Numbered from the stretch's first letter, positions 7,573-25,364 are shown. The stretch is DNA of 64,000 nucleotides from an uncultured Pseudomonadota bacterium (GCA_937907425.1 CALCIE010000052.1:1063-65062); one strand, 5' to 3'. Numbers and translations: made by a program. The notes: generated by a model from the sequence alone, not told the origin.

Positions 7573-7587
7573 TCGAGGGATGCAGCC

Positions 7588-11172: not shown

Positions 11173-11182
11173 AGGAGGGCGG

Positions 11183-12235
11183 ATGAAAAGGCGGTGGCTG
11201 TGCGGCGTTGCCTTGGGGCTGGCACTGGTGACGGCGGTGGTCTGGGCATTCCCGCGCGGGCAGGCGGACGGCGCCGCGCCCCTGCGGCTTTCGGGGACGT
11301 ACCTGCAACTGACCGCCGGCCATCTGGAATGGCGTGAGGAGGACTGGGAAGAACTGTTCGCCTATTTCCGCGAGCTGGGGCTTTCGGAGCTCATCGTGCA
11401 ATGGTCGGCCTACGAGGACAGCCGCTTCTATCCCGACGCCATGGCGCCCGGCACGAAGCCTTCGCCGATCGAGAGCGTCCTGAGGCTGGCCGACCGGACC
11501 GGCATGCGGGTAAGGCTTGGCCTCGCCTTCGAGGAGCGATACTGGACCGAGCTCGCCAAAAAGCCTGAGGAGCTTGCGCCGTATCTGGAAACGCTTGCGC
11601 AGCGTTCGGTGGCGATCGCGCAGGCCTTGTGGCCCCTGGCCCGCGAACACGTGTCCTTCACCGGCTGGTATATCCCGCAGGAAATCGACGACGAGAGCTG
11701 GCGCGAGCCCGAATACCGTCAATTGCTCCACGACTTCCTCGCGCGGCTCGGCCGGGCGTTGCACGAGATCGCTCCCGATACGCCCGTCGCCGTTTCCGGT
11801 TTCTCCAACGGCATGACAGACCCCGTCGCCTTCGAGGCATTCTGGAAGAACCTGCTCATGCAGGCGCCGCAGATCGATACCGTGCTGTTCCAGGACGGCG
11901 TCGGGGCGCACAAACTCGATCTGTTCGAACTGCCGCTCTATGCGGCGGCCATCCGCAACGCGGCGGTCGAGACCTCGCGGGAGGTCGTGTTCATCGTGGA
12001 GCTCTTCGACCAGGTCGCCGGGCCTCCCATCGACGAGAACCCCTTCCAGGCCGTGCCGGCGGCGCTGCCGCGCATTTTGCAGCAGCTCGAAGTCGCGCAA
12101 CGCTACGCTTCCATGGCGGTGGCGTTCAGCGTGCCCGAATATCTTTCGCCCAAGGGCGGGCAGGCGGCGGGGCTGCTTTACGACGAATACCGGGTCGCTT
12201 GCGTGACGAAGGCCTGCAGGGCGGCCGGGCAATGA
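11183..12235 (+). CDS. Exported DUF4434/YbcH-like TIM-barrel (glycosidase-like) protein
   Basis: GAAGGAGGG RBS. Signal/anchor MKRRWLCGVALGLALVTAVVWA. 'GTYLQL...WREEDWEELFAYFRELGLSELIVQWS' and 'FTGWYIPQEID' resemble DUF4434-type proteins such as E. coli YbcH. The position after nfrA matches the E. coli nfr operon. Confidence 0.6.
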   Translation: MKRRWLCGVALGLALVTAVVWAFPRGQADGAAPLRLSGTYLQLTAGHLEWREEDWEELFAYFRELGLSELIVQWSAYEDSRFYPDAMAPGTKPSPIESVLRLADRTGMRVRLGLAFEERYWTELAKKPEELAPYLETLAQRSVAIAQALWPLAREHVSFTGWYIPQEIDDESWREPEYRQLLHDFLARLGRALHEIAPDTPVAVSGFSNGMTDPVAFEAFWKNLLMQAPQIDTVLFQDGVGAHKLDLFELPLYAAAIRNAAVETSREVVFIVELFDQVAGPPIDENPFQAVPAALPRILQQLEVAQRYASMAVAFSVPEYLSPKGGQAAGLLYDEYRVACVTKACRAAGQ

Positions 12236-12253
12236 GCGCCGCCCCGGCGGGGC

Positions 12254-13006
12254 CTACCGTCCGCCCGCCACATCGATGAAACCGCCGGTGGTGTAGGCGG
12301 CTTCGTCCGACAACAGCCACAGGATCGCGTAGGCCACTTCCTCCGCATGACCGCCGCGCCGCAGCGGCACGTTGGCTTTCACGCGCTCGACGCGGTCCGG
12401 TTCGCCGCCGCTTGCATGCATTTCGGTGTAAATGAATCCGGGCCGTACGGCGTTGACGCGAATGCCTTCCTGTGCGACCTCGTGCGCGAGACCGATGGTG
12501 AAGGTGTCGACCGCGCCCTTGGAGGCGGCGTAGTCCACATACTCGAAAGGCGAGCCGGTCTTGGCCGCAATGGAAGATACGTTGACGATGGCGCCGCCCG
12601 CACCGCCATGCCGCGTGGACATGCGCCGCACGGCTTCGCGCGCGCACAGCATGGTGCCGATGACATTGGTCGCGAAGATGCGTTGCATGCGTCCGGCGTC
12701 CATCGTCTCGACCCGCATCTGCCGTTCCAGGATACCGGCGTTGTTGACGAGCGCGTCCAGACGGCCGAACTCGCGGTCCACGGTTTCGAACAGGTCCACG
12801 ACTTGCGCTTCGACAGAGACGTCTGCCGGAACGGCGATCGCGTGACCCCCTTCGCTTCGGATTTTCTCGACCACCTGCTGCGCGGCCTCGGCATCGCGCC
12901 TGTAGTTCACGCATACCGCGTAGCCGCGTTTGGCGGCGAGCAGGGCAGTTGCGGCACCGATCCCGCGGCCGCCGCCCGTAACGAGCAGAACCTTGCGCTG
13001 CTGCAT
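12254..13006 (-). CDS. Short-chain dehydrogenase/reductase (SDR) family oxidoreductase
   Basis: TGGGRGIG cofactor motif, NNAG, and the S...YxxxK triad (YAASK). ATG at 13006. The 269-aa N-terminal extension in the ORF track is antisense to the AKR gene. Confidence 0.85.
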   Translation of the reverse strand: MQQRKVLLVTGGGRGIGAATALLAAKRGYAVCVNYRRDAEAAQQVVEKIRSEGGHAIAVPADVSVEAQVVDLFETVDREFGRLDALVNNAGILERQMRVETMDAGRMQRIFATNVIGTMLCAREAVRRMSTRHGGAGGAIVNVSSIAAKTGSPFEYVDYAASKGAVDTFTIGLAHEVAQEGIRVNAVRPGFIYTEMHASGGEPDRVERVKANVPLRRGGHAEEVAYAILWLLSDEAAYTTGGFIDVAGGR

Positions 13007-13050: not shown

Positions 13051-13989
13051 TCAGCCGCCGACGGCCTGGACGATGGCCTCGCGCTGTTTGGCGTCCGGCA
13101 GGCGCCCGCGGCCGGCGCTCATGTTGTCGCGTACGTGTTCCACCTTCGACGTGGCGGGAATGGCGCAGGTCACCGCGGGATGCGAGATGACGAATTTGAG
13201 CATCAGTTGCGCCCAGCTTTCGCAATCGAGGTCCACGGCCCATTTCGGAACGGGCTTGCCGCGCAGGCGCGAGAACAGCCCCCCGCCGCCGAATGGACGG
13301 TTGACGATCACGGCGACGCCGCGTTCCCGGGCCAGCGGCAGCAGCCTGCGTTCGGCCTCGCGCTCGGCCACGGAGTAGTTGATCTGGATGAAGTCGAGCG
13401 GATGTTTCTCGACGAGCCGTGTCATCTCGTCGTGTGCGCCGGCCGTGTAGTGGGTAATGCCGACGTAGCGCACCTTCCCGGCCGCCTTCCATTCGCGCAG
13501 CGTGGCCAGATGCGTCTCCACGTCCAGGAGGTTGTGCACCTGCATGAGGTCGATGCGTTCGGTGCGCAGCTTGCGCATCGACGCCTCCATCTGCTCGACG
13601 CCGGCCTGCCGCCCCGAGGTCCAGACCTTGGTCGCGAGGAAGAGCTTGTCCGCAAGGCCGAGCTCGTGCGCGAGATCGCCCACCACTTCTTCGGCAGCGC
13701 CGTACATGGGCGAGGAATCGATCACGCGCCCGCCCATGCCCGCGAAGGTCTGCAATACCTCCTTGAGCGGGGCGCGTGAAGCGGGCGAGGCGTCCACGTC
13801 GAAGGTCTGCCATGTTCCCAGGCCGATCACCGGCAGCGGCTCGCCGCTCGAGGGAATCCTGCGCGTCCGCATCGCCTCCACGATGAGCGTGCCGCGTCGG
13901 AGATCGCCCTCGGCGGCGTGCGCGGCGAAGGGCATCACGGATGCGCCGGCCAGTAGGCGCAGTGCTTCACGTCGGTTCATTGCGGTCAT
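13051..13989 (-). CDS. Aldo/keto reductase with twin-arginine (Tat) signal peptide
   Basis: MTAMNRREALRLLAGASVMPFAAHA-AE is a Tat-like signal. The AKR tetrad context is intact (IDSSPMYG, LATKVW, LMQVHN). An alternative start is at 13980. Confidence 0.8.
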   Translation of the reverse strand: MTAMNRREALRLLAGASVMPFAAHAAEGDLRRGTLIVEAMRTRRIPSSGEPLPVIGLGTWQTFDVDASPASRAPLKEVLQTFAGMGGRVIDSSPMYGAAEEVVGDLAHELGLADKLFLATKVWTSGRQAGVEQMEASMRKLRTERIDLMQVHNLLDVETHLATLREWKAAGKVRYVGITHYTAGAHDEMTRLVEKHPLDFIQINYSVAEREAERRLLPLARERGVAVIVNRPFGGGGLFSRLRGKPVPKWAVDLDCESWAQLMLKFVISHPAVTCAIPATSKVEHVRDNMSAGRGRLPDAKQREAIVQAVGG

Positions 13990-15208
13990 GTCGTCGTCCT
14001 GTGCGCAGGCCCGTGGCGAGCCAGAGCAGGGCCACGGGCAGGCCCATCCACAGTATGGCATCCAGGCCTGCGCCCCGGATGCCGGCGACCGCCCAGGCGG
14101 AGAGCGCATCGTTCGCCCGGTACACGGCCGTGTCGATGAAGTTCTTCGCCTTGTAGCGGCTCTCGGGTTCGACGGTGGTGTAGATCATCTCGCGCCCCGG
14201 ACGCATCAGCGCATAGTCGCCGGCGCGGTGAATCCATTGCACCGCCGCCACGGCGATCGCCGAACGCCACGCGAGCAGCATGCCCAGTCCGCCCAGCACC
14301 AGCGCCGGTACCACCGACAGCGCGGTCCGCAGCCCGCCGCGGACGACCACGCGCCGTGTCACAAAGAGTTGCACCGTGATCGCGAGCGTGTTCACCGCCA
14401 GATCGATGGCGGCGAAAAAGGACGTGCGTTCGCCCGAATCCGGGAAACGCTCGCGGGCGAGGTCCAGCTGTTCGACGTAGAGAACAGTCGAAACGGCGCT
14501 GTAGCAGATCACCAGCAGGGCGATGCCGCGCAGGCCCGGACGCCGCAGGGTCAGCGTGATGCCGGCGAGGATCGAGCCGCCTATGGGCCGCACGGCCGAG
14601 GGACCATGCACCGCCGCATGGCGGCCCAGCGCGACCATGCAGAGCGTCGCCGCTGCGAGCAGGGTTGCGGACAGCGCGAGCAGTCCGTCGACCGTCAGGT
14701 ATCGCGCCAGGACGGTAGTGAGCGCCGGACCGAGCAGTGCGCCCGTGGTGCCTCCGGCAGCGATGTGGCCGTACAGCCGGTGCGACTGCTCCTTGCCGAA
14801 CACGTCGCTCACCCGGCTCCAGAACAGCGAGACCACGAGCAGATTGAAGACGCTCAGCCAGATGAAGAACGCGGCGGCTTTTGTTGTGGTGACGCCGGCG
14901 GAGAAGGCGAGCTGAAAGCCCAGCAGGGTGGCGATCACGGCTGCGTAGACCACGGGCAGCACTTTCGAGCGCTGCAGATGCCTCACCACGGCGCCGAACA
15001 CAGGAACCACGAGCAGCGTGGCGACGAAGGTGCCCGTGAACAGCCACTGCAGATGCTGGACGCCGGTCTGTACGCCCATTTCGTCGCGTACCGGGCGCAG
15101 GATGTAGTAGCTGCACAGGAGCAGGAGAAAAGCGGAGAACGCGAGCGAGACGCGCGGCCATTCGCCGGCAGGCCAGCTTCGTCGATCAGACGTCGTATCC
15201 GTGCTCAT
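13967..15208 (-). CDS. MFS-type transporter, ATP/ADP-translocase-like (Npt1/TLC-related) family
   Basis: About 12 predicted TM helices. The N-terminal 'YYILRPVRDEMGV' and C-terminal 'YKAKNFIDT' motifs are typical of Npt/TLC-like MFS proteins. It overlaps the AKR start by 23 nt, so they are probably one operon. Confidence 0.65.
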   Translation of the reverse strand: MSTDTTSDRRSWPAGEWPRVSLAFSAFLLLLCSYYILRPVRDEMGVQTGVQHLQWLFTGTFVATLLVVPVFGAVVRHLQRSKVLPVVYAAVIATLLGFQLAFSAGVTTTKAAAFFIWLSVFNLLVVSLFWSRVSDVFGKEQSHRLYGHIAAGGTTGALLGPALTTVLARYLTVDGLLALSATLLAAATLCMVALGRHAAVHGPSAVRPIGGSILAGITLTLRRPGLRGIALLVICYSAVSTVLYVEQLDLARERFPDSGERTSFFAAIDLAVNTLAITVQLFVTRRVVVRGGLRTALSVVPALVLGGLGMLLAWRSAIAVAAVQWIHRAGDYALMRPGREMIYTTVEPESRYKAKNFIDTAVYRANDALSAWAVAGIRGAGLDAILWMGLPVALLWLATGLRTGRRHDRNEPT

Positions 15209-15328
15209 CCCCGCATGCTAGCGCACATGCGCGCTGCGTCTTGGTGACGATTTGAACGTACAGCCGCTCGTCTGCCCAGGGAACGGCGTTTGCTGCAGGG
15301 CCTCGATCCCAGCCAAACGGAATGAGGT

Positions 15329-15871
15329 ATGCGGAAGGGCGGAGCGCAATGCGTCGCGGCGCTGTTGTTGAGCATCTTGCCCGCCGCGCAGTCTGCGGCG
15401 GTGGATGCGGGTATCGAATTCGGCCGAGGGAAATCCAAGGATGCCTCTGAATCGGATCTCCTCAGGCTGGTCGCCCGCGGTCTCGTGCTCGGCGACGGGG
15501 AAGGGAAAGCGGCCTCCTGGTCGCTGTGGTGGGAGGCGTCGGTCGGCACCTGGCGCTACGATACGGAGAGCGGACGCAAACAGCTTCTCGATATCGGCAC
15601 GGCGCCGTCGCTGAGGTACATGAGCCGGGGCACCGCGGGCTTTTTCGGCGAGCTGAGCGTCGGCGTGCACTACCTGAGCCGGCGTTACGTGCGCGGCGAG
15701 AACGAGTTTTCCACCCGGGTACAGTTTTCGCCCACTCTGGGCGTGGGTTATCGCTTCGAGAGCGGCGCGGGCGAGATCGCGTTGCGCTACCAGCACCTGT
15801 CCAATGCGGACATCAAGCGGCCGAATCCCGGTGTGGAGTTTCTGTTGCTGAGCGTCAGTCGGAAGTTCTGA
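15329..15871 (+). CDS. Acyloxyacyl hydrolase / lipid A 3-O-deacylase (PagL) family outer-membrane protein
   Basis: Signal peptide ending AQS-AA. Small beta-barrel-like alternating pattern. 'YQHLSNA' (His-x-Ser-Asn catalytic motif of PagL). C-terminal ...LLSVSRKF. Confidence 0.65.
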   Translation: MRKGGAQCVAALLLSILPAAQSAAVDAGIEFGRGKSKDASESDLLRLVARGLVLGDGEGKAASWSLWWEASVGTWRYDTESGRKQLLDIGTAPSLRYMSRGTAGFFGELSVGVHYLSRRYVRGENEFSTRVQFSPTLGVGYRFESGAGEIALRYQHLSNADIKRPNPGVEFLLLSVSRKF

Positions 15872-15993
15872 CGGAAACGCCGGCTGGCAGAGCGGACCGC
15901 CGAAATGAAACGAGGCGCCTCTAGTGTTGCCGGCTATCGGGTGAACAGCCGTCGGAAGCGGGGTTGCCGCCGCTTGCCGGCGCTCGAACAGCC

Positions 15994-17043
15994 TCAGTTG
16001 CCGGCCTTGTAGGGCGTATTCACCGCAAAGTGTCCCACGGGCTTCCAAGGCATTTTTGCGAGCCCGAATCTGCGCAATTGCTGCAATACCCGGATGCTGA
16101 CACAAGCGGTGCGGTTTCTGAACATCGGCAGGGACAGGGGATCGAGCCCCAGCCACGGCAGATAGGGATTGCGGCGAAGCGATGCGTAGAGCTCGACGCG
16201 CACGGTCGGGCGGGTCGACAGTGTGCGTGCGTGGAAGCCCATCGTATCGGCCACAACCAGCGTATTGCCCCGGACCACCATCTTCTTCGGCTCGGGCAGG
16301 TTCATGCGGCGCAGATCTTCGAGTGTCGCACGGAACGAGCCCCGGGCATGGTAGGGAATGGGATGGTGGCGGGCGGTAATGCTCTGCTCGCGTTCCCAGG
16401 CCAGCCGTTCCGGCGTCATGCGGTGAGAGCCGGGTACGTAGGCGAAAGGCCCGTCGTCCGGGCCGACATCGTGCAGGAACAGCCAGGCCTTGGCGGTGGA
16501 GTGGAAGGTGTCCGCATGCAGAACGGATTGCGGGTCGGGCTTGCCGTCCGGCAGACCGGCCAGCACGGCCTGAATCCAATAGGTCGGTTCGCCTTTGGTC
16601 GAGGCGATGTACCGAAGCGCGTCCTTCAACGTCCGGTCGGCGCCCACCCGTGCAAGTCCGGGGCAGCGCGAGGCGAGGGCGTCGAAGTCCAGCGGAACGC
16701 GCCGGGTGATGCAGTTGCCCTGGCGCATCTCGCGCACGTCCCATGTCGCGTCGAGAACTTCGGCGCGGATTTGCTCGAAGAACTCCTGCGGCAGGAAATT
16801 CTCTTTGACGATGTAGCCGTCGCGTTCGAACGCCCGGCGATCCTCCTCCGTCAGGCTCAGAATGCGTGCCAACCGCCGTCGCCGGTATGCCGCCATCGCG
16901 GCCGCGAGCCGTACCCGATACTCGTGAAGTCCCCATTCGTTCAGCCGTCGGCTGCCGATGACGGGATTGTCGACAAAGGACTTGGCGCCGGAGGCGAGCG
17001 CGGCAACCCAGAGGGGGGCTTTGAGTATTGCGGTGGCTCTCAA
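15994..17043 (-). CDS. Phytanoyl-CoA dioxygenase (PhyH)-like Fe(II)/2-oxoglutarate dioxygenase
   Basis: 'LHADTF' (HxD), 'WLFLHDVGPDDGPFAYVPGSHR', and distal 'MGFHARTLSTR' (His/Arg) match the PhyH-family facial triad and 2OG-binding layout. Confidence 0.6.
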   Translation of the reverse strand: MRATAILKAPLWVAALASGAKSFVDNPVIGSRRLNEWGLHEYRVRLAAAMAAYRRRRLARILSLTEEDRRAFERDGYIVKENFLPQEFFEQIRAEVLDATWDVREMRQGNCITRRVPLDFDALASRCPGLARVGADRTLKDALRYIASTKGEPTYWIQAVLAGLPDGKPDPQSVLHADTFHSTAKAWLFLHDVGPDDGPFAYVPGSHRMTPERLAWEREQSITARHHPIPYHARGSFRATLEDLRRMNLPEPKKMVVRGNTLVVADTMGFHARTLSTRPTVRVELYASLRRNPYLPWLGLDPLSLPMFRNRTACVSIRVLQQLRRFGLAKMPWKPVGHFAVNTPYKAGN

Positions 17044-17242
17044 GTTCGATGCCTCGAATCTTATGGTTGTGGCGCGTCTGCCGTTTGAGGGCGCCCCTCT
17101 TTAACGGGGATCAAAGCGGCGCGCTCCCCGAGACGCGCAACCGCCTCTTTTCAGCGCGGCACATTATAAGCACCCGCTATAGTCGCACGGCGCTGTTTGC
17201 ATCGGGTTCGCCAGATGTGTCACGCTTGGCGCTTGCCGCGGG

Positions 17243-18517
17243 GTGGCCCGGCAACGGGTCTCCGCGGACACGGTAAAATCGCGCGCACGAGATCGGGGAG
17301 GGGCGGACTCGCAGAGGCTGCCCGTTGGGGCTTTGCAGCGCATCACCAATCGTCACGTCTATTATTTCAGCGGCTTCGATCCGCGCGGCGCGCGCTACTA
17401 CCACCGCCTCTATCGCGAGGAGGCCGCAAAGCAGGCGGCGCTGACCGGCACGCGCATCGAAGTCGGCCCGCGCTTGCGTGCCGGCGAGCTTTCCAAGGTG
17501 TGGACGGTACGCAGCGCCGGTCCGGACGGCGTGACCGAAACGGTCTATGAATTCATGCGCTGGGACGACATCGTGCGCCGCCATTGGACGCGCAACGAGG
17601 CTCGGCTGGCCGTCGAACTGGTACGCACCGCCTGGGCATACGTTGCGAGCGGCACGTTATGGCGCATCCTGAAAACGGCCTGGCCGCCTTTCGTCACGGG
17701 GCTTTATCCGGTGCTGTATTTTCTCGCCCTGGTCACGGCGGCTGTTTTCGCGGCGCTCGGCCTGGGCGGTTGGCTGGGCCGCCAATACGGCATCGTGGCG
17801 GGCGGCGCCGGCGCGGCCGCTGCGGCGGTGGGTGTGCTGTATCTCGGCCGCCTCGTGGAAAAGCGGTTGAGGTGCTACTGGTTGCTGCGCATCTATGCCT
17901 TCACCGTGCGCCAGGCCGGAGGGCTGCCCGAGCTGGAAGCCAGGATCGACCGCTTCGCGGAATACATGGCCCGGCAGATCGCCGGCAGTCAGGCGGATGA
18001 AATACTCGTGGTGGGGCACAGCGTCGGTACCACGATCGCCTGCTCGGCGCTTGCTCGTGCATTGGCGCGCATGCCCAAGGTCGATCGCCGCATCGCGCTC
18101 GTCACGCTCGGGCAATGCATTCCGATGCTGAGCCTGCTGCCCCAGGCGCAGAAGTTCCGGGAAGACCTTGCCCGTCTCGGGTCGCATCCCGAAGTGGAAT
18201 GGATCGACTTCACCGCCCCGACAGACGGCGCCTGTTTCGCGCTGACCGATCCGCTGCAGGCCTCCGGCATCCCGGGTGTGAGGGATATCCAGCGTCCGAA
18301 ACTGCTCTCGCCGCGCTTCATGACCCTGTTCGACGCGAAAACCTACGCACGAATCCGTCGCAACTGGTTCCGCAATCACTTCCAATACCTGATGGCGGGC
18401 GACAAGGTCGGCGATTACGATTACTTCGCCATTACAGCCGGTCCGGTGCCGCTCGCCGAGCGCTATGCGGCCCATCGTTCGGTGGTGGGCTACCGCCGCT
18501 TCAAGGTGTTCGGATGA
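17243..18517 (+). CDS. Membrane protein with lipase-like GHSVG motif (putative alpha/beta-hydrolase), family unknown; start uncertain
   Basis: High GC3 from about 17330 onward. Three or four TM helices (LYPVLYFLALVTAAVFAALGLGGWL, VAGGAGAAAAAVGVLYL). 'ILVVGHSVGTTIA' is a nucleophile-elbow-like motif. GTG 17243 and TTG 17333 are possible starts. The stop overlaps the P450 start (ATGA). Confidence 0.5.
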   Translation: MARQRVSADTVKSRARDRGGADSQRLPVGALQRITNRHVYYFSGFDPRGARYYHRLYREEAAKQAALTGTRIEVGPRLRAGELSKVWTVRSAGPDGVTETVYEFMRWDDIVRRHWTRNEARLAVELVRTAWAYVASGTLWRILKTAWPPFVTGLYPVLYFLALVTAAVFAALGLGGWLGRQYGIVAGGAGAAAAAVGVLYLGRLVEKRLRCYWLLRIYAFTVRQAGGLPELEARIDRFAEYMARQIAGSQADEILVVGHSVGTTIACSALARALARMPKVDRRIALVTLGQCIPMLSLLPQAQKFREDLARLGSHPEVEWIDFTAPTDGACFALTDPLQASGIPGVRDIQRPKLLSPRFMTLFDAKTYARIRRNWFRNHFQYLMAGDKVGDYDYFAITAGPVPLAERYAAHRSVVGYRRFKVFG

Positions 18518-19941
18518 GCAAATTCTGCCCCGTCTACCCGAAACCCAAGACCAGCCGTGCGTCGCTGCTGTGGATGTTCTTCCGCAAGCGCCGCTCGTGG
18601 CTCGACGGGCTGTTCGAGCGCAGTTACAGAATGAAAATGGGGCAGGTCCTGTTGCCGGGCCTGGACGTCTACATGGTCAACCAGCCGGAGCTGGTGCGGC
18701 GCATCCTGGTGACCGAGGCGGAGAAGTTTCCCAAGCACAAGTTGCTCGGCATGATGCTCGAGCCGCTGCTGGGGGAGAGCATTTTCACGACCAACGGCGC
18801 GATCTGGGAGATGCAGCGGCGCATGCTGGACCCCGCCTTCGCCCAGGCACGGTTGAAGAACGTGTTCCCGCTCATGCGCGACGCGGGCATCGCGCTGTGC
18901 GAGCGGTTGGACCGGTTGCAGGACGGCGCCGTCCACGATCTGGAAGTGGAGATGACGCACGTCACCGCCGACATCATCTTCCGCACCATCCTTTCCCAGA
19001 AGCTCGACGGCGACAATGCGCGCAAGGTCTTCGACGCGTTCACCCGGTTCCAGGCGCTCGCGCCGCGCGTGCTCCTGCCCCGGCTTTATCGCCTTCCCGC
19101 ATGGTTGAGGCCGTCCAAAACGGAGCGTCGGCTACGGGAGGCGGGGAACGAGATCCGCTCCCTGCTCGAGCACTTCATCCGCCCGCGCTACGAGGCCTGT
19201 CGCGCCGGCAATCCGGGCGAATACCAGGACATTCTCTCGGTCCTGCTCGACGTCGCCGATCCGGAAACGGGCAAGCGCTTCGACTACGAGGAACTCGTGG
19301 ATCAGGTGGCGATGCTCTTCCTTGCCGGCCATGAGACCTCGGCGAGCGCGCTTTCCTGGTCGCTCTATCTCATCGCCTCGGTGCCCGAGATCCAGCAGCG
19401 CATGTACGAAGAGGGGCGTGCCGTGCTCGGCAGGCGCGAGCCGGATTACGCCGACATCAAGAAGCTGCGCGTGCACTGGAACGTCTTCCGGGAGGCGTTA
19501 CGGCTCTACCCGCCGGTGGGCTTTTTCGCGCGTGAAGTGACGCAAACCACGCGCATGAGAGACAAGACCATGTCGCCCGGCGCGTCGGTCGTGATCTCGC
19601 CCTGGCTGATCCACCGGCACCGCGAGCTGTGGGAGCGGCCGGACGAATTCGATCCCGATCGCCACGATTCGCCGGAAGCCAGGGAATCGCTCCGTTGCGC
19701 TTACCTGCCCTTCGGCATGGGGCCGCGTGTCTGCATCGGGGCCGCATTCGCCATGCAGGAAGCGGTGCTGATCCTGGCGATGCTCGTGCAGCGCTATCGC
19801 TTCGAAGCGGTACCCGGTTTCGAACCGCGGCCCGTGGGCCGGCTCACGGTGCGCTCCGAAAACGGTATTCGCGTTCGACTGAACAAACGGTCGGAGGCGG
19901 ACGAAGCGCCGGCCGTTCGCGCCGAGGCGCTCAGGGGATAA
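18514..19941 (+). CDS. Cytochrome P450
   Basis: Heme loop FGMGPRVCIGAAFA, I-helix FLAGHETSA, ExxR (FREALR). ATG 18514 overlaps the upstream stop. The longer track ORF (18115) is an off-frame extension through the upstream gene. Confidence 0.85.
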   Translation: MSKFCPVYPKPKTSRASLLWMFFRKRRSWLDGLFERSYRMKMGQVLLPGLDVYMVNQPELVRRILVTEAEKFPKHKLLGMMLEPLLGESIFTTNGAIWEMQRRMLDPAFAQARLKNVFPLMRDAGIALCERLDRLQDGAVHDLEVEMTHVTADIIFRTILSQKLDGDNARKVFDAFTRFQALAPRVLLPRLYRLPAWLRPSKTERRLREAGNEIRSLLEHFIRPRYEACRAGNPGEYQDILSVLLDVADPETGKRFDYEELVDQVAMLFLAGHETSASALSWSLYLIASVPEIQQRMYEEGRAVLGRREPDYADIKKLRVHWNVFREALRLYPPVGFFAREVTQTTRMRDKTMSPGASVVISPWLIHRHRELWERPDEFDPDRHDSPEARESLRCAYLPFGMGPRVCIGAAFAMQEAVLILAMLVQRYRFEAVPGFEPRPVGRLTVRSENGIRVRLNKRSEADEAPAVRAEALRG

Positions 19942-19955
19942 GCGTCAATGAAAGC

Positions 19956-19983
19956 GCATCTTCCGTTTCCCTGAGGAAGATGC
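19956..19983 (+). other. 9-bp stem hairpin GCATCTTCC-N10-GGAAGATGC just after the P450 stop
   Basis: Exact inverted repeat read from the sequence. No clear U-tract follows, so it is an attenuator/stabiliser rather than a classic terminator. Confidence 0.35.
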
Positions 19984-20011
19984 CGGTCTTGCAACGTAGA
20001 AGCAGATAAAA

Positions 20012-20356
20012 GTGAACGAAAGACTCCTCGGCTTTCTGCTCATGTGTTTACTCGTGCCGATGGCGATCATCGGCTATTTCGTCCTCGTCTTCGTCGGTTT
20101 GTTCGGCAAGACGGAGCGGGGCAGGGCGGGCGTGCGCGCGCTGGACCATTTCGTCAACGCCACGGTCTTCAACGGCTACGCCTGGGAATCCGTATCCTCG
20201 CACGCCTGGCGCAAGCGCGACCGTCGATGGGCGAAGATCGTCATCTGGCTTACCGACCATCTGCAGAAGGATCACTGCATGCGTGCGAACAAGCGCGAGC
20301 AGGCGGTGGTGGACCTGGTGGAGAAGAAGGGGCTGCACAAGCAGACCATGTGGTAG
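20012..20356 (+). CDS. Small membrane protein (114 aa), unknown function
   Basis: High GC3. N-terminal TM helix LLGFLLMCLLVPMAIIGYFVLVFVGLF, then a basic soluble tail. The start is GTG 20012 (or ATG 20042). No strong SD. Confidence 0.5.
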   Translation: MNERLLGFLLMCLLVPMAIIGYFVLVFVGLFGKTERGRAGVRALDHFVNATVFNGYAWESVSSHAWRKRDRRWAKIVIWLTDHLQKDHCMRANKREQAVVDLVEKKGLHKQTMW

Positions 20357-20379
20357 CGTCGCGTTGCTAGGGCGTACCG

Positions 20380-21246
20380 CTACCTGACTGTGTAGCGAGC
20401 GGCGGCTTCATCGAAGACGCCTTCGAGCGCCTCCAGCAGGCTGCGCCTGCCGCTTTCCAACTGCGCGCGTACCCGCGAGGTGTGAACCATGCGGATTTCC
20501 ACGGGAATGCGCGTACAGCCGAGCATGGATGCGATCGCGCATCGGTGCTGGGCTCCCGGCAGCTTGACCAACGCGCCGTTTCCCGCGATGGCTACGCCGA
20601 TTTCCCGGTCGGGCACAAAGAGGCCGGCGGATTCCGAATGACCCACGACGCCGTTTGCGCGGATGGACTCCACCAGCCGGAGCACGTTCTCGAAGTAGCG
20701 ATCCAGCTCGGCCCGTGAAGCGAGCTTCGTTCTGCGGCGGCTCGGCGGGTTGCCGGTTTCGATCTGCTTCAGCATCCGCCCGTAGGTCGGCGTGGCGCGG
20801 AAGTCGAAACGCGCGGCAAACAGCTCTTCGATTTCCTTGAATACGGCTGTATTGCCGAGCGGCCGCGTCAGTTCCGCGATGGGGGCGCCGCAGAAGAAGT
20901 AGTCGCTGGTATGGAGCCGCGTTTGCCCGTCGGTGAGCCAGTCCGGCAGCTCGGCGCCGATCGAACCGGGCGACACCTGCAGGAGCAGCCGCCGGCCGAA
21001 ACAGGCCTGGGCATACTGCGGCGGGCATTGGAACCCCGCGTTTCGCTCGCAGGACGCGATCCAATGGCGCATTCGTACGGAGAAGAGGGCGCGGCTGCGG
21101 TACAGGACTGAGAGGCGCTTTGCCAGCGCGACCCTTCTCGATCGTCGTAAAAGGTCCTCCGGCCGGATCGCGCCGGCCTGCACCTGGATCCAGCGCGGCG
21201 CGGCGTCAGGCGCTCGCCCGCTTTTCGGCGAAATCGACTTGTGCAT
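20380..21246 (-). CDS. Hypothetical protein with ParB/sulfiredoxin-like C-terminal motif
   Basis: High GC3 across the whole frame. 'VAIAGNGALVKLPGAQHRCAIASMLGCTRIPVEI' resembles the ParB/Srx 'G-x-HR-x-x-A...G...IPV' box. It overlaps the kpsS 3' end by 41 nt if ATG 21246 is used. Confidence 0.5.
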   Translation of the reverse strand: MHKSISPKSGRAPDAAPRWIQVQAGAIRPEDLLRRSRRVALAKRLSVLYRSRALFSVRMRHWIASCERNAGFQCPPQYAQACFGRRLLLQVSPGSIGAELPDWLTDGQTRLHTSDYFFCGAPIAELTRPLGNTAVFKEIEELFAARFDFRATPTYGRMLKQIETGNPPSRRRTKLASRAELDRYFENVLRLVESIRANGVVGHSESAGLFVPDREIGVAIAGNGALVKLPGAQHRCAIASMLGCTRIPVEIRMVHTSRVRAQLESGRRSLLEALEGVFDEAAARYTVR

Positions 21247-22486
21247 CGAGCGGTAACGGCGTGCCCGGAGATTCTCTGGTCGCCGCGGGCCGATCCAAGG
21301 ACCACCATGCCGTGCTCGGTCTGTAGAAGCTGCCGTGGATCTGCGTGGTGCTGATGAGGTAGTTGCGGAAGCGCACGAACAGCTTGCGATCGGGCTTGAA
21401 ATCGTCCGCCGCTCGCCAGAAGCTGTCGAGCGCCCCCTGGAACGTCAGCCCCGGCATGTCGTATACCGCCTTCCCGCAGGCCTTGACGGCGGCATTGTGA
21501 TGAAGTGCCTGCAGACCCACCGTACTGTTCAGCACGACGACGCCGCACGAATGGTTGATGAGCGTCGGAAGATGCTGATCGTGAATGTAGAGCAGCCGGT
21601 CGCGTACGCCGTACTCGTCGGCGAGCGATTTCAGGAAACCGCCGTAATCGTGGTGGCCGCGATCCAGCGGATGATGCTTGATCACCAGAGAACGCTCCTT
21701 CGGCGCGTGCAGGGCGAACGACTCGACCACGGTACGCAGGAAGGTTTCGACCGATCCGAAGGGCGAATGCACGTGAACCTGCGCATCGATCGATACCTGC
21801 AACGGCACCAGGTAGTACTTCTTCGCCATCGGCCCGGTCAGCAGTTCGAGCATGCCCCGTTCGCGATAGCGGTACCAGAACTTGCGGAAGAAACTGCGCA
21901 CCCAGGGAAATGCCTCCCGCAGGCGCAGCGGCCGATGATGCCGGTAGTGCCTGAAGATCGGACGTGCCGCCACGCTGGCGAGGTAATAGAGTATTCCCCA
22001 TAGCGCGGCGTGCCATATCGGGTTGGCGATCTTGGGGGACTTGATGGGCTCGCTGTCGTCCAATGCGGCATAGAAGGCGGGATCGCGGGGCAGCCGGGAG
22101 TAACCGTTCACGCCGAAGCGCTCGAACGTTATGTAGTTCGGACGTACGTAGCCTTCCTCGAACACGCCGATCTCCAGACCGCGACGGCTCGCCAGCGCGT
22201 GTGCGACGCGGTGAATCGGCCTGCAATCCCCGAACAGCATCACCACGTCGATGCACAGGCGTTCGTACACCTCGTCCAGAAAGGCCTCGAGATCCTCCAT
22301 CCGGCCGGTGTAGCACATGGATCCGGTCGGGTAGAACAGCCAGTCGCCGCCGTTGAAGTTCACCTTGTGAACGACGGCGCCCGCATGAGTCAGTTGCTTG
22401 GCGACGTGTCTAAAGAATGGTCCGATCGGACCTTGGAGGAGCAATACCCGCTTCCCGCGGTAGGCCTCCCAGCCTCCCCGATCCAT
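21206..22486 (-). CDS. kpsS: Capsule biosynthesis beta-Kdo transferase KpsS (LipB) family
   Basis: 'GKRVLLLQGPIGPFF', 'NFNGGD', 'FGDCRPIH' and 'FEEGYVRPNYITFE' match the KpsS/Capsule_synth signature. Start chosen at ATG 22486 (MDRGGW...), which gives the same spacing to LLLQGP as E. coli KpsS. ATG 22576 is also open. Confidence 0.75.
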   Translation of the reverse strand: MDRGGWEAYRGKRVLLLQGPIGPFFRHVAKQLTHAGAVVHKVNFNGGDWLFYPTGSMCYTGRMEDLEAFLDEVYERLCIDVVMLFGDCRPIHRVAHALASRRGLEIGVFEEGYVRPNYITFERFGVNGYSRLPRDPAFYAALDDSEPIKSPKIANPIWHAALWGILYYLASVAARPIFRHYRHHRPLRLREAFPWVRSFFRKFWYRYRERGMLELLTGPMAKKYYLVPLQVSIDAQVHVHSPFGSVETFLRTVVESFALHAPKERSLVIKHHPLDRGHHDYGGFLKSLADEYGVRDRLLYIHDQHLPTLINHSCGVVVLNSTVGLQALHHNAAVKACGKAVYDMPGLTFQGALDSFWRAADDFKPDRKLFVRFRNYLISTTQIHGSFYRPSTAWWSLDRPAATRESPGTPLPLDAQVDFAEKRASA

Positions 22487-24468
22487 ACGTTCCTCGAGCG
22501 TGTCTTGATGCTTATGAGTTTCCGGTACAACCGGCGCCACAGCGGAAGTCTGTGTGCCTCGCCGCTGTCGCGCCATTCCAGCAATTCGTCCAGCGCGCGC
22601 TCAGGCGTCGTGAAGCGCCCGGTCACCCGGCTGACGTAAGTGGGGTAAAGGATCAGCGTCCCGGCCACCAGTTCGTCGAGCGTCAACCGCCGTGTGCGGC
22701 GTTCCAGCCTTTCGTGATCTGAAGTGAGCCCCCAGCCGGCGTAAAAGGGCAGACCGTAGGTCACCACCTTTTTGCCCCGCAGCAGCGCCTCGAAGCCGGT
22801 GAGGGAGGTCAGCACGTGCACTTCGTCGACCTGTTGCAGCAGCGCGCCCATCGCCACATCGATCACGACTTCGTCGCAGATCGAGCGCGCGTTTTCCTCG
22901 CCTGTGCCACCGGCACGCAGTCCCGCCACCACATCGGGGTGCGGCTTGTATATCACGTACGCGTCCGGGTTGGCCTGCCGGACCGCTTGCAGCAAAGCCA
23001 TGTTGCTTCTGATGCGCCGCGTGCCGTAACGGATCGACGCGTCGTCCTCGACCTGCCCCGGTACGAGGATCACTCTGGCAAGTCCGGCGGGGCGTTTCCA
23101 TTCTTTCGCACCGACGTTGTACTTCGTCAGTGCGGCCTCCACGATCCGCGACCGCAGCCTGGCCGCGCGCCCGATCAGCTCCGGAGTGAAGTCGGCCGTC
23201 TGCAGAATGCGTTCGAGCTCCGACGGCCTGTTCGCATCGTAGTAGATGCCCTCGCGATCGATGACCCATGAAAGCGGACGGACGAGATCCGCGCCCAGTC
23301 CGACCGAGCGCAGAAACCCGTCCTCCAAACGCAGTATGGAGACATCTTCCGGCAGGGTGCCCGTGACGGGTTTGTTTCCCCAGACGGCGAGCATGGCGCC
23401 TGGGGGCACCGATGAGACATCGCGTACGAAGCGCACCTCGCTGCCCCAGAGAAACCGGCGGACGAGGGGCTTTTTCCATCCGGAAAAGCCGTGCGCGTAC
23501 ACGACCTCCGGAAAACGTTCCCGCATGCGGCGTTGCAGGCCGAGATGCGCGATGACCGTTTCGACTTCGCAGCGCTTCTTTGTCTCCGGGTCGAGGTAGC
23601 GCGGGTACTCGACTAGTGCGGCATGGACCAATTGCTCGAGCGAAACGGGCTTGCGCCGCTCGGGGGCGGGCAGTTCGTCTTCGGTCAACCCCCATCCGGC
23701 GTAGAACGGCATGCCGAAGGTGCGGACACGCTTCCTCCAGATCAACCCTTCGAATCCGAGCTGCGAGGTCACGACATAAACGGCCTCGGCGGCTTTGATC
23801 AGCTGCGCCGGGTTAACCTCATCGGCGATCAAACGAACGCGAGGATTCTTTGCGACAGCGTTGTAATCGAAGTGCCCCCGTTTGCGCCCGCCGACGACAT
23901 CGGGATGCACCTTCAAAACGACTTGGCACTGTGGATTCTCGGCTAACGCGCAATCGAGCATCCTCCGGAAGGTCGCGGGCGTCGCTTGTCCGTACTCGAT
24001 TGAAGCATCGCCTCTTGTTTGATCGACGACCAGAACGAAGCGTTCGGGAAGAACGAGCGAACGATCTCTTTGATGGTTATATTTCGAGAGCTGATTTTCT
24101 TTCCACGCCCGAATGAGCGCGCTGGCCCGGGCGTGCTGGCCCGCGTCCAAGGGCTGCGGGATCAAGCGTTCGAGTCGCGAAGGACGGGTCGCGTCGTAGT
24201 ACACCCCGCAATCGTCCACAACGATGGAAAGCGGGGGATCCATGTCCCCTCGTCCAACGGACCGCAAAAATCCGTCTTCCAGATGTACGAACGGAATACG
24301 TGTATGGGCCGCAAATCGGCGCGCAACGATCGCAGAGGGGCGAAGTCCCCAGCCGGCGATTTGGGTGATGCTGCTCAACGACAGGAGATGGACAAGCGCG
24401 ATCCGTTGTCCGACCAGCGCATCCAGGGCCGGAATGTTGCGAAGCCTGAGTGAAAATACGCCGATCAT
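22390..24468 (-). CDS. kpsC: Capsule biosynthesis beta-Kdo transferase KpsC (LipA) family, two tandem Capsule_synth domains
   Basis: Duplicated 'LEDGFLRSVG...' modules (FVHLEDGFLRSVGRGD; ILRLEDGFLRSVGLGAD) and duplicated 'KPHPDV' modules (LKVHPDVVGGRK; YKPHPDVVAGLR). About 690 aa, as for KpsC. The 3' end overlaps kpsS by at least 97 nt. Confidence 0.8.
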   Translation of the reverse strand: MIGVFSLRLRNIPALDALVGQRIALVHLLSLSSITQIAGWGLRPSAIVARRFAAHTRIPFVHLEDGFLRSVGRGDMDPPLSIVVDDCGVYYDATRPSRLERLIPQPLDAGQHARASALIRAWKENQLSKYNHQRDRSLVLPERFVLVVDQTRGDASIEYGQATPATFRRMLDCALAENPQCQVVLKVHPDVVGGRKRGHFDYNAVAKNPRVRLIADEVNPAQLIKAAEAVYVVTSQLGFEGLIWRKRVRTFGMPFYAGWGLTEDELPAPERRKPVSLEQLVHAALVEYPRYLDPETKKRCEVETVIAHLGLQRRMRERFPEVVYAHGFSGWKKPLVRRFLWGSEVRFVRDVSSVPPGAMLAVWGNKPVTGTLPEDVSILRLEDGFLRSVGLGADLVRPLSWVIDREGIYYDANRPSELERILQTADFTPELIGRAARLRSRIVEAALTKYNVGAKEWKRPAGLARVILVPGQVEDDASIRYGTRRIRSNMALLQAVRQANPDAYVIYKPHPDVVAGLRAGGTGEENARSICDEVVIDVAMGALLQQVDEVHVLTSLTGFEALLRGKKVVTYGLPFYAGWGLTSDHERLERRTRRLTLDELVAGTLILYPTYVSRVTGRFTTPERALDELLEWRDSGEAHRLPLWRRLYRKLISIKTRSRNVWIGEAGRPTAGSGYCSSKVRSDHSLDTSPSN

Positions 24469-25017
24469 CGCGTTAACGGCCCAAGCGGGGCGGCGCGTGT
24501 GCAGGAAGGGCGCTCGGGAGCGAAACCATAGTCAGGTCTTGAGACTCTCCGGTTAAGAGTCCGCAGGGGGCGGGCACCAATCGCGCAGCCGTAGCCGTGC
24601 GGTGCGCCCTTTCGACAGGCGCGGCAGGCGAAAGCAACACCTTCCGGACGCCGTTGGCGACGGATGCCGATACCACCTTTTTGCTCCCTGTTCTTGATGG
24701 AGCGGCCGCGAACGGACAGAAGATGGCGTGCGAGCCGGTTCAGCGTGACGTCTGGTCGCACTGGAAGCGAGCGGCTCCTGGAGAGGCGTCGCTTGTAGGT
24801 GGTTCTCCCCGCAGCGGTTTTTTGCCTGTTTATCGCGGCGGATTATAGCGACATCCGCATGGGGCTTCCGCTAGTCCGTACGGATGATCGCATCTTGAAG
24901 CGGTACGATTCCTTGCCCGGGGTAAGCCGGGCGCGGGACGGGCCGGCCCGAGGGGGCGTGCCGGCTTGCACAACGGACCGTATCGTGCAGGCCGGTCAGC
25001 GACCCGGCGAGCCCATG

Positions 25018-25045
25018 AAAAAAGGCGCCGAAGCGCCTTCCTTTT
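25018..25045 (-). terminator. Rho-independent (bidirectional-looking) terminator downstream of the tRNA cluster
   Basis: AAAAAA-GGCGC-cgaa-GCGCC-TTCCTTTT. On the minus strand the GC stem with a GNRA-like loop is followed by T6, 33 nt after the tRNA-His 3' end. Confidence 0.65.
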
Positions 25046-25069
25046 GCGAAGCCTGGTATGGGGAAATTC

Positions 25070-25146
25070 TGGGGTGGCTGATGGGACTCGAACCCACGAC
25101 AACCTGAATCACAATCAGGGACTCTACCAGCTGAGCTACAGCCACC
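25070..25146 (-). tRNA. tRNA-His (anticodon GTG)
   Basis: The reverse complement is GGTGGCTGTAGCTCAGCTGGTAGAGTCCCTGATTGTGATTCAGGTTGTCGTGGGTTCGAGTCCCATCAGCCACCCCA. It has the extra G-1, a cloverleaf, anticodon loop TTGTGAT and encoded CCA. It is near-identical in pattern to E. coli hisR. Confidence 0.95.
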
Positions 25147-25157
25147 ACTGAACGGCT

Positions 25158-25234
25158 TGGCGTGCCCGACAGGGGTCGAACCTGTAACCCCCAGCTTAGA
25201 AGGCTGGTGCTCTATCCGGTTGAGCTACGGGCAC
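25158..25234 (-). tRNA. tRNA-Arg (anticodon TCT)
   Basis: The reverse complement is GTGCCCGTAGCTCAACCGGATAGAGCACCAGCCTTCTAAGCTGGGGGTTACAGGTTCGACCCCTGTCGGGCACGCCA. All four stems pair, the anticodon loop is CTTCTAA, and CCA is encoded. Confidence 0.93.
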
Positions 25235-25287
25235 TTCTAGTCGGACACTCCAACCGCCCGCGCTTAAGGCGCCGACGGTTCCAAAAC

Positions 25288-25364
25288 TGGTCGGGGTGGA
25301 GAGATTTGAACTCCCGACATCCTGGCCCCAAACCAGGCGCGCTACCAGGCTACGCTACACCCCG
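25288..25364 (-). tRNA. tRNA-Pro (anticodon TGG)
   Basis: The reverse complement is CGGGGTGTAGCGTAGCCTGGTAGCGCGCCTGGTTTGGGGCCAGGATGTCGGGAGTTCAAATCTCTCCACCCCGACCA. It folds as a cloverleaf with anticodon loop TTTGGGG (G37) and encoded CCA. Confidence 0.93.

Follow-up and report, generated by a model that had tools for sequence, protein, structure and literature searches.

Introduction

The capsule regions wcb of Burkholderia pseudomallei and rkp-1 of Sinorhizobium combine KpsS/KpsC-type genes with dedicated lipid-making enzymes, which are of the polyketide or fatty-acid synthase type, unlike a cytochrome P450 paired with a membrane hydrolase. KpsC modules have been defined by a QxxxD nucleophile, the histidine of an HP motif and a glutamate base (PMC10148158). 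The anchor of the Vi antigen (VexE, diacyl-HexNAc) is an example of a non-standard lipid terminus whose enzymes are encoded in an ABC-transporter capsule locus (PMC12220298, PMC8760489). Here we analysed a window, a stretch of 64 kb from a betaproteobacterium, in which kpsS and kpsC lie next to a three-gene cassette encoding a membrane serine-hydrolase-like protein (ABhyd), a cytochrome P450 and a small membrane protein. These five genes travel together in many unrelated bacteria, and the association of the cassette and the kps genes suggests that the synthesis of capsule lipid anchors includes a step not yet described. We found no paper in the literature connecting these genes.

Organisation of the block

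The block and its neighbours comprise the following features (coordinates in the window, strand):

13967-15208, minus: MFS/TLC-like transporter (PF07690, E 1e-9, and a weak TLC match)
15329-15871, plus: PagL-family outer-membrane lipid A 3-O-deacylase (PF09411, E 1.4e-25)
15994-17043, minus: PhyH-family putative Fe(II)/2-oxoglutarate dioxygenase (PF05721, E 2.5e-9, 38.2 bits for a cut-off of 22)
17243-18517, plus: ABhyd, membrane serine-hydrolase-like protein (GHSVG at residues 258-262)
18514-19941, plus: cytochrome P450 (PF00067, E 3.6e-79, 267 bits)
20012-20356, plus: small membrane protein of 114 residues, third gene of the cassette (no Pfam match)
20380-21246, minus: orf288, with a weakly ParB/Srx-like C-terminal part
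21206-22486, minus: KpsS-type beta-Kdo transferase, GT107 (PF05159, E 1.3e-82)
22390-24468, minus: KpsC, two-module beta-Kdo transferase (PF05159 and PDB KpsC modules)
24469-25069, no strand: non-coding spacer of 600 bp between kpsC and tRNA-His
25070-25364, minus: cluster of tRNA-His(GTG), tRNA-Arg(TCT) and tRNA-Pro(TGG), called by ARAGORN
25070-25145, minus: tRNA-His, its 3' end toward the block

An earlier note on this DNA had listed PagL, PhyH, a GHSVG protein with a P450, a small membrane protein and kpsS-kpsC, and all were found where it had placed them. The genes of the block form five transcription units of alternating orientation. The kpsC-kpsS-orf288 unit on the minus strand, in which the start of kpsS overlaps the end of kpsC and orf288 comes last, and the hydrolase-P450-small cassette on the plus strand are convergent and do not make up one operon. 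Within the cassette the P450 start overlaps the hydrolase stop (ATGA), in line with the translational coupling described earlier. The MFS gene, the left neighbour of the block, leads an MFS-AKR-SDR unit on the minus strand and overlaps the AKR gene. At the other end, the spacer gave no Rfam match, no ops element was found in it, and no promoter-like or terminator-like consensus sites were reported within it.

A gene scan found no transporter, polymerase or Kdo-activation gene within the block, as the earlier note had stated. Neither did it reveal genes of the Kps export or Kdo-activation types among those scanned elsewhere in the window, and the 5.3 kb of source contig left of the window hold no kps export or CMP-Kdo genes. 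Over the window and these 5.3 kb, kpsS/kpsC are thus not clustered with kpsM/kpsT, KpsE, KpsD and kpsF/kpsU genes as in a group 2-type locus; the sole transport or synthase genes of the window are the MFS gene at the left edge of the block and, farther to the left, an exopolysaccharide operon (GT2) that is unrelated.

The block is accessory

G+C content, 49.2% in 24001-24120 and 70% in 36601-36660, reproduces the figures on which the earlier note had called the composition atypical. The first of these stretches is coding sequence of the kpsC N-module and includes the QxxxD motif; just three stretches of 120 nt in the window, this one included, have 50% G+C or less. At the 1-kb scale the block has 62-66% G+C versus 66% for the window, and codon usage is the clearer off-type signal: the mean codon score is 0.20 in block genes versus 0.46 in 32 core genes (Mann-Whitney p 1.3e-5), kpsC being the most atypical gene of the block (-0.02), and GC3 is 0.81 versus 0.88.

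Comparison with relatives, which had been suggested earlier, showed that the block is absent at this locus in the nearest other species (L010) and missing from a near-identical strain (L101). Synteny with L010 ends at tRNA-His and the block is absent at that locus; the 25 kb left of the tRNAs are likewise non-syntenic. The tRNA cluster follows prmB in L001, L002 and L010, and is inverted on the other side of prmB in L003 and L004. In L101, one segment is lacking:

13355-23837, no strand: segment absent from the L101 strain contig (blastn of L101 against the window, 99.95% identity)

This deletion of 10,483 bp, which takes in the MFS gene, ends at 13354/23838, within the AKR gene and within kpsC; the junction shares 2 bp and an in-frame AKR::KpsC fusion ORF is called across it. 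The atypical codon usage, the synteny break at tRNA-His and the strain deletion together support the block as accessory, dispensable and compositionally off-type.

The earlier description of a tRNA-adjacent acquired block thus holds for its position on the 3' side of tRNA-His and for its accessory status, but not for tRNA targeting. No integrase was present in the block or among the flanking genes scanned, and a search allowing up to 3 mismatches found no repeat of the 3' end of tRNA-His. The presence/absence borders defined by L101 lie inside genes, 1.2 kb from the tRNA, and not at an attachment site. The missing integrase and att repeat and a deletion that ends within genes argue against a classical tRNA-targeted island.

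KpsS, KpsC and the cassette proteins

KpsC residues 2-340 match E. coli KpsC-N (6mgc, E 3e-71) and residues 323-633 match KpsC-C (6mgd, E 1e-76). Both modules carry the GT107 motifs: QTRGD at 150-154 and QVEDD at 472-476, HPD at 188 and 510, and LEDGF at 63 and 381. KpsS has the motifs QVSID and HHP and scores 428 bits against NCBIfam NF050054, under the 600-bit equivalog cut-off; its start at ATG 22486 fits a 100%-identical database protein of 426 residues. It clusters with KpsS from ordinary capsule loci and not in a cassette-specific clade.

The hydrolase-like protein belongs to a family of more than 1,100 homologues and matches Abhydrolase_1 with E 4e-4 and 20.5 bits, under the 25.8 cut-off. 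All 36 homologues compared keep S260, D322/D328 and H379. Hydrophobic segments span residues 149-179 and 183-202. The strand order of its AlphaFold model (pLDDT 89) is compatible with an alpha/beta fold, and Foldseek gave no match below E 0.08. In this model the protein looks like an alpha/beta fold interrupted by a two-helix hydrophobic hairpin, a weakly supported fold assignment; translation may begin some 30 codons further downstream. Since the hairpin has basic residues on its flanks and the P450 lacks a membrane anchor, both proteins are predicted to share a compartment.

The P450 carries the motifs of its family (AGHET 271-275, EALR 327-330 and FGMGPRVCIG 400-409). Its nearest solved structures, CYP97A3, CYP170A1, CYP102 and CYP4B1, include carotenoid, terpene and fatty-acid hydroxylases, and no redox partner is encoded nearby. 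The small protein opens with a hydrophobic stretch of 35 residues that includes a conserved VP, and continues with a nearly invariant GVRALDHFVNA...SSHAWR...RANKREQ. It is the best conserved of the three: tblastn identities to the window cassette are 63-76% for this protein, 45-68% for the P450 and 34-51% for the hydrolase. Clustering at 50% identity gives 70 representatives of the small protein, and in one of these it is fused to a GT4 glycosyltransferase.

The cassette recurs with kpsS and kpsC

A metagenome scan seeded on the hydrolase alone yielded 79 loci, at least 15 of which had KpsS and/or KpsC homologues a few kb away. Removing redundancy and requiring a flank of 4 kb or more left 18 loci with the small protein, of which 11 encoded KpsS or KpsC and 13 some capsule-type gene. 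For ABhyd-P450 pairs lacking the small protein, the counts were one and two of eight (Fisher p 0.036 and 0.038, respectively). Cassette and kps genes are tightly packed on one strand, in no fewer than six arrangements and in loci of 42-69% G+C:

L083: kpsC-small-ABhyd-P450-kpsS
L080 and L091: kpsC-kpsS-small-ABhyd-P450
L078: small-ABhyd-P450-kpsS, with kpsE/M/T-like genes
L096: ABhyd-ABhyd-P450-kpsS
L056: kpsC, kpsS, export protein, P450, ABhyd, GT1
L037: GT4-kpsC-kpsS-GT1-ABhyd-P450-small-ABhyd

In many extended clusters an EryCIII/GT28-like GT1 lies beside the hydrolase, and KpsC there consists of the C-type module only. The grouping of kpsS/kpsC with the hydrolase, the P450 and the small protein, pointed out earlier for this window, therefore recurs well beyond the source genome. 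The suggestion that it serves a glycolipid "rather than a classical capsule" was not borne out: elsewhere the same cassette lies within or next to capsule loci of the ABC-transporter type that carry glycosyltransferase and kpsF/M/T/E/D-type genes, and Vogesella indigofera, Janthinobacterium and Glaciimonas have it beside kpsF/M/T/E/D-type genes. Cultured carriers include V. indigofera, Janthinobacterium sp. 17J80-10 and Glaciimonas soli. The link is frequent but not obligatory, since no capsule genes occur within 10 kb of the cassette in Derxia, in a second Janthinobacterium copy, or in L062, L085 and L098.

PagL, PhyH and orf288 as probable independent passengers

The PagL gene is monocistronic. 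Its product aligns with Pseudomonas aeruginosa PagL (2ERV) at 26.8 bits, keeps the catalytic HLSN (His-x-Ser) and GVE (Glu) and has a signal-peptide-like N-terminus. Pfam domain, catalytic His, Ser and Glu and signal peptide thus place it in the PagL family, as for the enzymes of P. aeruginosa and Salmonella; nothing indicates substrates beyond lipid A, and elsewhere it is unlinked to kps genes or the cassette. The PhyH-like protein has HAD at 176-178 and FHAR at 270-273, the distal His ligand being a tentative assignment, and gave marginal matches only against PDB sequences.

The earlier note had called orf288 ParB/Srx-like. The ORF is there, yet the likeness is weak: Pfam, PDB sequence and HMM searches gave no match, and the AlphaFold model (pLDDT 90.9) found Noc, ParB and sulfiredoxin as best folds in Foldseek at E 0.015-0.05 and probability 0.8-0.98, over about 85-110 residues and with low TM-scores (0.17-0.18 query-normalised, 0.23-0.54 target-normalised). 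The C-terminal part of orf288 carries a conserved G-x-HR-x-A...IPVE-x-RM-x-H, whose G-x-HR-x-A...IPV portion resembles that of ParB/Srx-fold proteins (ParB, Noc, sulfiredoxin, the serine kinase SbnI); the best folds, though weak, point the same way. Unlike these, orf288 has an extra, unmatched helical N-terminal half, no DNA-binding domain and no sequence-level match to them. The family is rare, with only 21 homologues in unrelated gene contexts.

In 83 other loci, PagL, PhyH, orf288 and the MFS gene were all absent from the neighbourhood of the cassette. PagL is an outer-membrane enzyme, whereas the other enzymes of the block are predicted to face the cytoplasm. The block is therefore not the single module that had been supposed, and we regard PagL, the PhyH-type dioxygenase and orf288 as probable passengers independent of the rest.

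Discussion

We propose that the region is a dispensable mosaic of envelope genes in a betaproteobacterium from compost or a bioreactor, in which the cassette tailors a Kdo-lipid capsule anchor, and we rate this reading a little better than even. Because the cassette recurs with kpsS/kpsC and beside capsule export genes, the sequences point to anchor tailoring rather than to a role in a non-capsular glycolipid. The functional core would be two convergent units, kpsC-kpsS(-orf288) and the hydrolase-P450-small cassette. From what is known of their families, KpsS and both KpsC modules would draw on housekeeping CMP-Kdo and, on the cytoplasmic side of the inner membrane, extend phosphatidylglycerol by a short beta-Kdo chain; the cassette would tailor the lipid end of this glycolipid in the same compartment. 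Conserved linkage and predicted topology suggest that the P450 may hydroxylate an acyl chain, that the hairpin-anchored Ser-Asp-His hydrolase may remove or exchange one, and that the small protein may keep these enzymes at the membrane. The anchor so made would enter the ordinary ABC-transporter capsule pathway in other bacteria; export genes of the source genome, if present, would lie outside the 64 kb. E. coli builds its capsule anchor without hydrolase, P450 or small-protein genes, which counts against the proposal. So do the weak support for the hydrolase fold, the absence of a nearby gene for a P450 redox partner, the convergent arrangement of the two units, the grouping of KpsS with proteins of ordinary capsule loci, and the cassettes that have no capsule gene within 10 kb.

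The region could also be a patchwork of unrelated envelope genes, in which an ordinary group 2-type kpsS/kpsC pair relies on export and polymerase genes elsewhere and the cassette, of unrelated function (phospholipid remodelling, xenobiotic oxidation), settles in variable envelope regions. The alternating orientation of the five transcription units fits this view, as does the lack of co-conservation of PagL, PhyH, orf288 and the MFS gene with the rest; moreover, relatives of KpsS occur in classical capsule loci without the cassette, and several genomes carry the cassette without kps genes. However, chance does not explain a cassette placed on the same strand between kpsC and kpsS, only a few bases from its neighbours, in several orders and at varied G+C, and against the 11 of 18 loci with KpsS or KpsC a rough estimate for random 20-kb windows is well under 1%. 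We consider such a patchwork unlikely, while giving it real weight.

Quite improbable, in our judgement, is a single horizontally acquired, tRNA-His-targeted island making a free, non-capsule Kdo-glycolipid that PhyH, P450, PagL and the hydrolase hydroxylate or deacylate. It would account for a block that adjoins the tRNA-His 3' end where L010 synteny stops, with atypical codon usage and no export genes within 64 kb, but not for the missing integrase and att repeat, the non-syntenic 25 kb left of the tRNAs or a strain variant that is a deletion ending within genes. Elsewhere, neither PhyH nor PagL, an outer-membrane enzyme, accompanies the other genes, and other taxa have the cassette in full capsule export loci. 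There is likewise a slim chance that the product of the cassette is another lipid acceptor, for instance a hydroxylated fatty-acid or glycolipid primer, that replaces phosphatidylglycerol as the KpsS substrate. The many extended clusters that have only a C-type KpsC module, and a GT1 of a family glycosylating lipophilic acceptors, argue for it, together with the analogy of fungal sophorolipid pathways, which combine a P450, a GT1 and an esterase. The window, however, has no GT1 and a full two-module KpsC, and the order of reactions is not readable from sequence.

Tailoring of the capsule anchor, the reading we favour, has a precedent in the Vi system, which lacks KpsS/KpsC and uses an acyltransferase, whereas the window keeps KpsS/KpsC and adds a P450 and a serine hydrolase. 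With group 2 anchor synthesis of E. coli and Neisseria the window shares KpsS and a dual-module KpsC with QxxxD, HP motif and Glu base (PDB 6mgc, 6mgd, 8fuw). Unlike the E. coli locus, it has no kpsF/E/D/U/M/T or serotype glycosyltransferase genes nearby and its KpsS scores under the NCBI equivalog cut-off; its kpsS and kpsC adjoin the hydrolase-P450-small cassette, which the E. coli locus lacks.

Gene content of the block and its surroundings

Genes were picked by third-position G+C in the window, whose overall G+C content is 66%, and then assigned by family searches. Every gene named in the earlier note is present in the window, and its two local G+C counts (49.2% and 70%) were exact. The block (15329-24468, the envelope genes beside tRNA-His) is organised in five transcription units of alternating orientation, and its genes and neighbours are as follows.

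Genes of the block and its flanks
2296-12235, plus strand: exopolysaccharide operon with a UDP-GlcNAc 2-epimerase-like gene, a GT2 synthase, a 138-aa ORF, DUF2334, a 1194-aa outer-membrane TPR protein with an NfrA C-terminal domain (NfrA_C) and DUF4434
Also left of the block: MFS-AKR-SDR unit
15329-15871: PagL (PF09411, E 1.4e-25), with the catalytic His-x-Ser and Glu kept in the alignment to P. aeruginosa PagL 2ERV
15994-17043, minus strand: PhyH-family dioxygenase, from the family search
17243-18517: 424-aa GHSVG protein, membrane serine-hydrolase-like (hereafter the hydrolase), its stop overlapping the ATG of the P450 gene as ATGA
18514-19941: P450, its start overlapped by the hydrolase stop
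20012-20356: small protein, 114 aa, with a hydrophobic N-terminus
20380-21246, minus strand: orf288, last gene of the kpsC-kpsS-orf288 unit
21206-22486, minus strand: kpsS
22390-24468, minus strand: kpsC, two-module
25070-25364, minus strand: tRNA-His, tRNA-Arg and tRNA-Pro; a 600-bp spacer separates tRNA-His from the block, towards which its 3' end is turned
Right of the tRNAs, core genome: prmB, dapE, pilU-like, dapD, queF, smc, zipA, ligA, glnD, map, rpsB, tsf, pyrH, frr, uppS, cdsA, rseP, bamA, skp, lpxD, lpxA

Within the kpsC N-module, the low spot of 49.2% G+C is unremarkable coding DNA; G+C also drops to 50% or less at 19931-19991, in the 70-nt gap separating the P450 and small-protein genes. 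The exopolysaccharide operon resembles the NfrA/NfrB-type secretion system of E. coli. Neither the scanned window genes nor the 5.3 kb of contig preceding the window included a Kps export or CMP-Kdo gene. An ops/JUMPStart element was not detected upstream of kpsC, the two matches elsewhere in the window being at chance level. An Rfam search of the window returned the three tRNAs only, and a promoter and terminator scan remained at background level.

The hydrolase-P450 cassette recurs with kpsS and kpsC

A metagenome scan with the hydrolase as sole seed yielded 79 loci, onto which the block proteins were then mapped. The P450 followed the hydrolase almost everywhere the sequence continued, the small protein was found in about half of the loci, and KpsS and/or KpsC homologues were located within a few kb in at least 15 of them. 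For the linkage counts, near-identical loci were merged and only those with 4 kb of flank or more were kept. Cassettes comprising hydrolase, P450 and small protein were accompanied by KpsS or KpsC in 11 of 18 cases and by some capsule-type gene in 13 of 18, compared to 1 of 8 and 2 of 8, respectively, for hydrolase-P450 pairs without the small protein (Fisher p ~0.04). Cassette and kps genes formed tight same-strand arrays in several orders, at loci whose G+C content ranged from 42 to 69%.

Gene order at representative metagenomic loci
L083: kpsC-small-hydrolase-P450-kpsS
L080 and L091: kpsC-kpsS-small-hydrolase-P450
L078: small-hydrolase-P450-kpsS, then KpsE-, KpsM- and KpsT-like genes
L037: Wza/KpsD-like protein, GT4, single-module KpsC, KpsS, EryCIII-like GT1, hydrolase, P450, small, second hydrolase

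In single-module KpsC, it is the C-terminal module that is present. Five loci (L030, L034, L037, L053 and L086) carry such a half-size KpsC, matching that module only, together with an EryCIII-like GT1 just before the hydrolase, an arrangement that may point to a Kdo primer that is shorter or of another kind.

Cultured genomes had this same gene neighbourhood. In Vogesella indigofera assembly GCA_028548435.1, kpsF-M-T-E-D and sugar genes diverge from small-hydrolase-P450, and in Glaciimonas soli and Janthinobacterium sp. 17J80-10 manC and KpsE/M/T-like genes come after the cassette. The Janthinobacterium genome contains two hydrolase-P450 copies: the one with the small protein lies beside capsule-type ABC genes, the one without it beside an undecaprenyl-diphosphatase (BacA-family) gene. 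Adjoining the Vogesella cassette (L105, 13877-16602) are a fatty-acid-desaturase/AlkB-type gene, a Rieske ferredoxin and a ferredoxin reductase, and these could serve as electron donors for the P450. The cassette was also found with no capsule gene in reach.

PagL, PhyH, orf288 and the MFS gene were absent from every cassette locus mapped. The block had been read earlier as a single module: this holds for kpsS and kpsC, which recur with hydrolase, P450 and small protein, but not for PagL and PhyH, which never do. Overall, the gene linkage of the cassette with kps is moderately supported.

Properties of the cassette proteins

In the hydrolase, S260 (within GHSVG), D322/D328 and H379 are invariant. 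In a confident model, beta strands lie on either side of a helical insert, which has two hydrophobic helices flanked by basic residues; the catalytic domain is predicted to face the cytoplasm. PDB sequence and Foldseek searches against known structures gave no significant match to the hydrolase, whose family counted more than 1,100 members in this search. In one bioreactor run, a 1-nt deletion at window position 17300 falls within the first 27 residues of the ORF, which are poorly conserved and of low confidence, suggesting that the true start lies further downstream.

The nearest solved structures to the P450 are CYP97A3, CYP170A1, CYP102 and CYP4B1, whose substrates are carotenoids, terpenes or fatty acids. 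The small protein is the best conserved of the three, with 63-76% identity to its window counterpart versus 34-51% for the hydrolase and 45-68% for the P450. In it, a hydrophobic stretch of 35 residues, which has a conserved Val-Pro and may form a re-entrant hairpin, is followed by a nearly invariant 80-residue domain. Its family is small (70 representatives). Fusions to the P450 or the hydrolase had been expected, but of the two long representatives one is fused to a GT4 glycosyltransferase and the other to a GSCFA-family domain; these may be read-through gene calls.

KpsC, KpsS, PagL and orf288

KpsC aligns to E. coli KpsC-N from residue 2 onward and to KpsC-C (6mgd) over residues 323-633. 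QxxxD, HP and the LEDGF glutamate, the KpsC residues shown to be catalytic (PMC10148158), are retained in each of the two modules. KpsS retains QxxxD and HP and scores under the NCBI equivalog cut-off; its closest relatives are 55-62% identical, some of them in ordinary capsule loci. A specialised KpsS subfamily was considered and dropped, as cassette-linked KpsS proteins form no clade with the window KpsS in a tree. PagL, treated here as independent, most likely deacylates outer-membrane lipid A. Homologues of orf288, 21 in number, occur in unrelated contexts, one of them a restriction-modification-like island. Pfam, PDB sequence, PDB profile and PADLOC searches gave no match to orf288, and its C-terminal part is ParB/Srx-like by fold search, with weak matches only.

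Origin and strain variation of the block

The two stretches read from a metagenome contig of 73.9 kb (ENA ERZ795072 NODE_227) match the window at 99.87-99.95% identity. Near-identical sequence is present in at least 19 runs, those labelled being compost, fertilizer, bioreactor and soil metagenomes. The closest locus of another species (L010, labelled Nitrosomonadales bacterium; protein identity about 77-87%) keeps the three tRNAs and the order prmB through smc; beyond tRNA-His it continues with a baeRF gene, then pnp, infB and nusA, and it has nothing of window 1-25000. The genome collection scanned comprises other species, and the evidence on whether sister species have or lack the block comes from this one 20-kb locus and short contigs. 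The first L010 gene past tRNA-His (11391-12809) encodes a bacterial eRF1-like protein of baeRF family 3.

Codon-usage scores averaged 0.20 for eight block genes versus 0.46 for the core (p 1.3e-5), kpsC being the extreme of the block (-0.02), and GC3 was 0.81 versus 0.88. This off-type usage is suggestive only, because left-flank genes are intermediate and weakly expressed genes show the same pattern. One near-identical strain contig (L101, 99.95%) lacks exactly 13355-23837; its junction has two bases common to both ends and leaves the aldo-keto reductase gene in a fusion with the 5' portion of kpsC. The block is therefore polymorphic and can be dispensed with, the observed event being a deletion. 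Reads of four metagenomes have the block intact, and contig breaks near 13359 in one run are suggestive of mixed variants. Just left of window position 1, L101 and L102 differ from L103, a second strain-level rearrangement; two near-identical strain contigs have napA/napE and a NarL-type two-component system there, and a third a TonB receptor, a PepSY protein and a LysR regulator.

The earlier proposal of a horizontally acquired tRNA-adjacent block stands in so far as the block is accessory, off-type in codon usage and missing at the L010 locus, and its origin is probably foreign. A tRNA-targeted island, by contrast, is not demonstrable, as neither an integrase nor a repeat of the tRNA-His 3' end (att site) was found.

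Discussion

KpsS adds the first beta-Kdo to phosphatidylglycerol and KpsC extends it (PMC10148158, PMC11041684, PMC12220298). CMP-Kdo would be supplied by the housekeeping LPS pathway; the window carries lpxD, lpxA and likely lpxB. We propose that the cassette would work on the same lipid at the cytoplasmic face: acyl-chain hydroxylation would fall to the P450 and acyl-chain removal or exchange to the hydrolase, with the small protein as putative organiser of the enzymes at the membrane; support for this chemistry is low. The anchor's lyso form appears in the literature only as "(lyso)phosphatidylglycerol", and the hydrolase could be a dedicated enzyme for it. As a tentative proposal, which we hold possible rather than probable, hydrolase, P450 and small protein may together form a unit, widespread and so far undescribed, for tailoring or priming the lipid anchor on which ABC-transporter capsules are built; these capsules would then end in a hydroxylated and/or partly deacylated Kdo-lipid terminus.

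In this genome the block is a dispensable accessory region. Its kpsS and kpsC are of known kinds, and their separation from export genes and their neighbouring passengers are unremarkable. No description was found of these Kdo transferases recurring together with the membrane hydrolase, P450 and small protein: a search for papers on KpsS, KpsC and P450 together gave none in a library covering few subscription journals. Recurrence of the cassette between or beside kpsC and kpsS at 42-69% G+C suggests that the lipid end of the anchor is modified in many environmental Proteobacteria. Such a modified anchor, if true, would represent a new enzymatic step in a well-studied pathway, and the linkage provides a first functional lead for three uncharacterised protein families. 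ABC-transporter capsules are thought to begin on one conserved anchor, phosphatidylglycerol with beta-Kdo. The Vi antigen, with its diacyl-HexNAc, is the known exception to this standard anchor; the Burkholderia wcb and rhizobial rkp regions, with their lipid genes, represent further departures from it.
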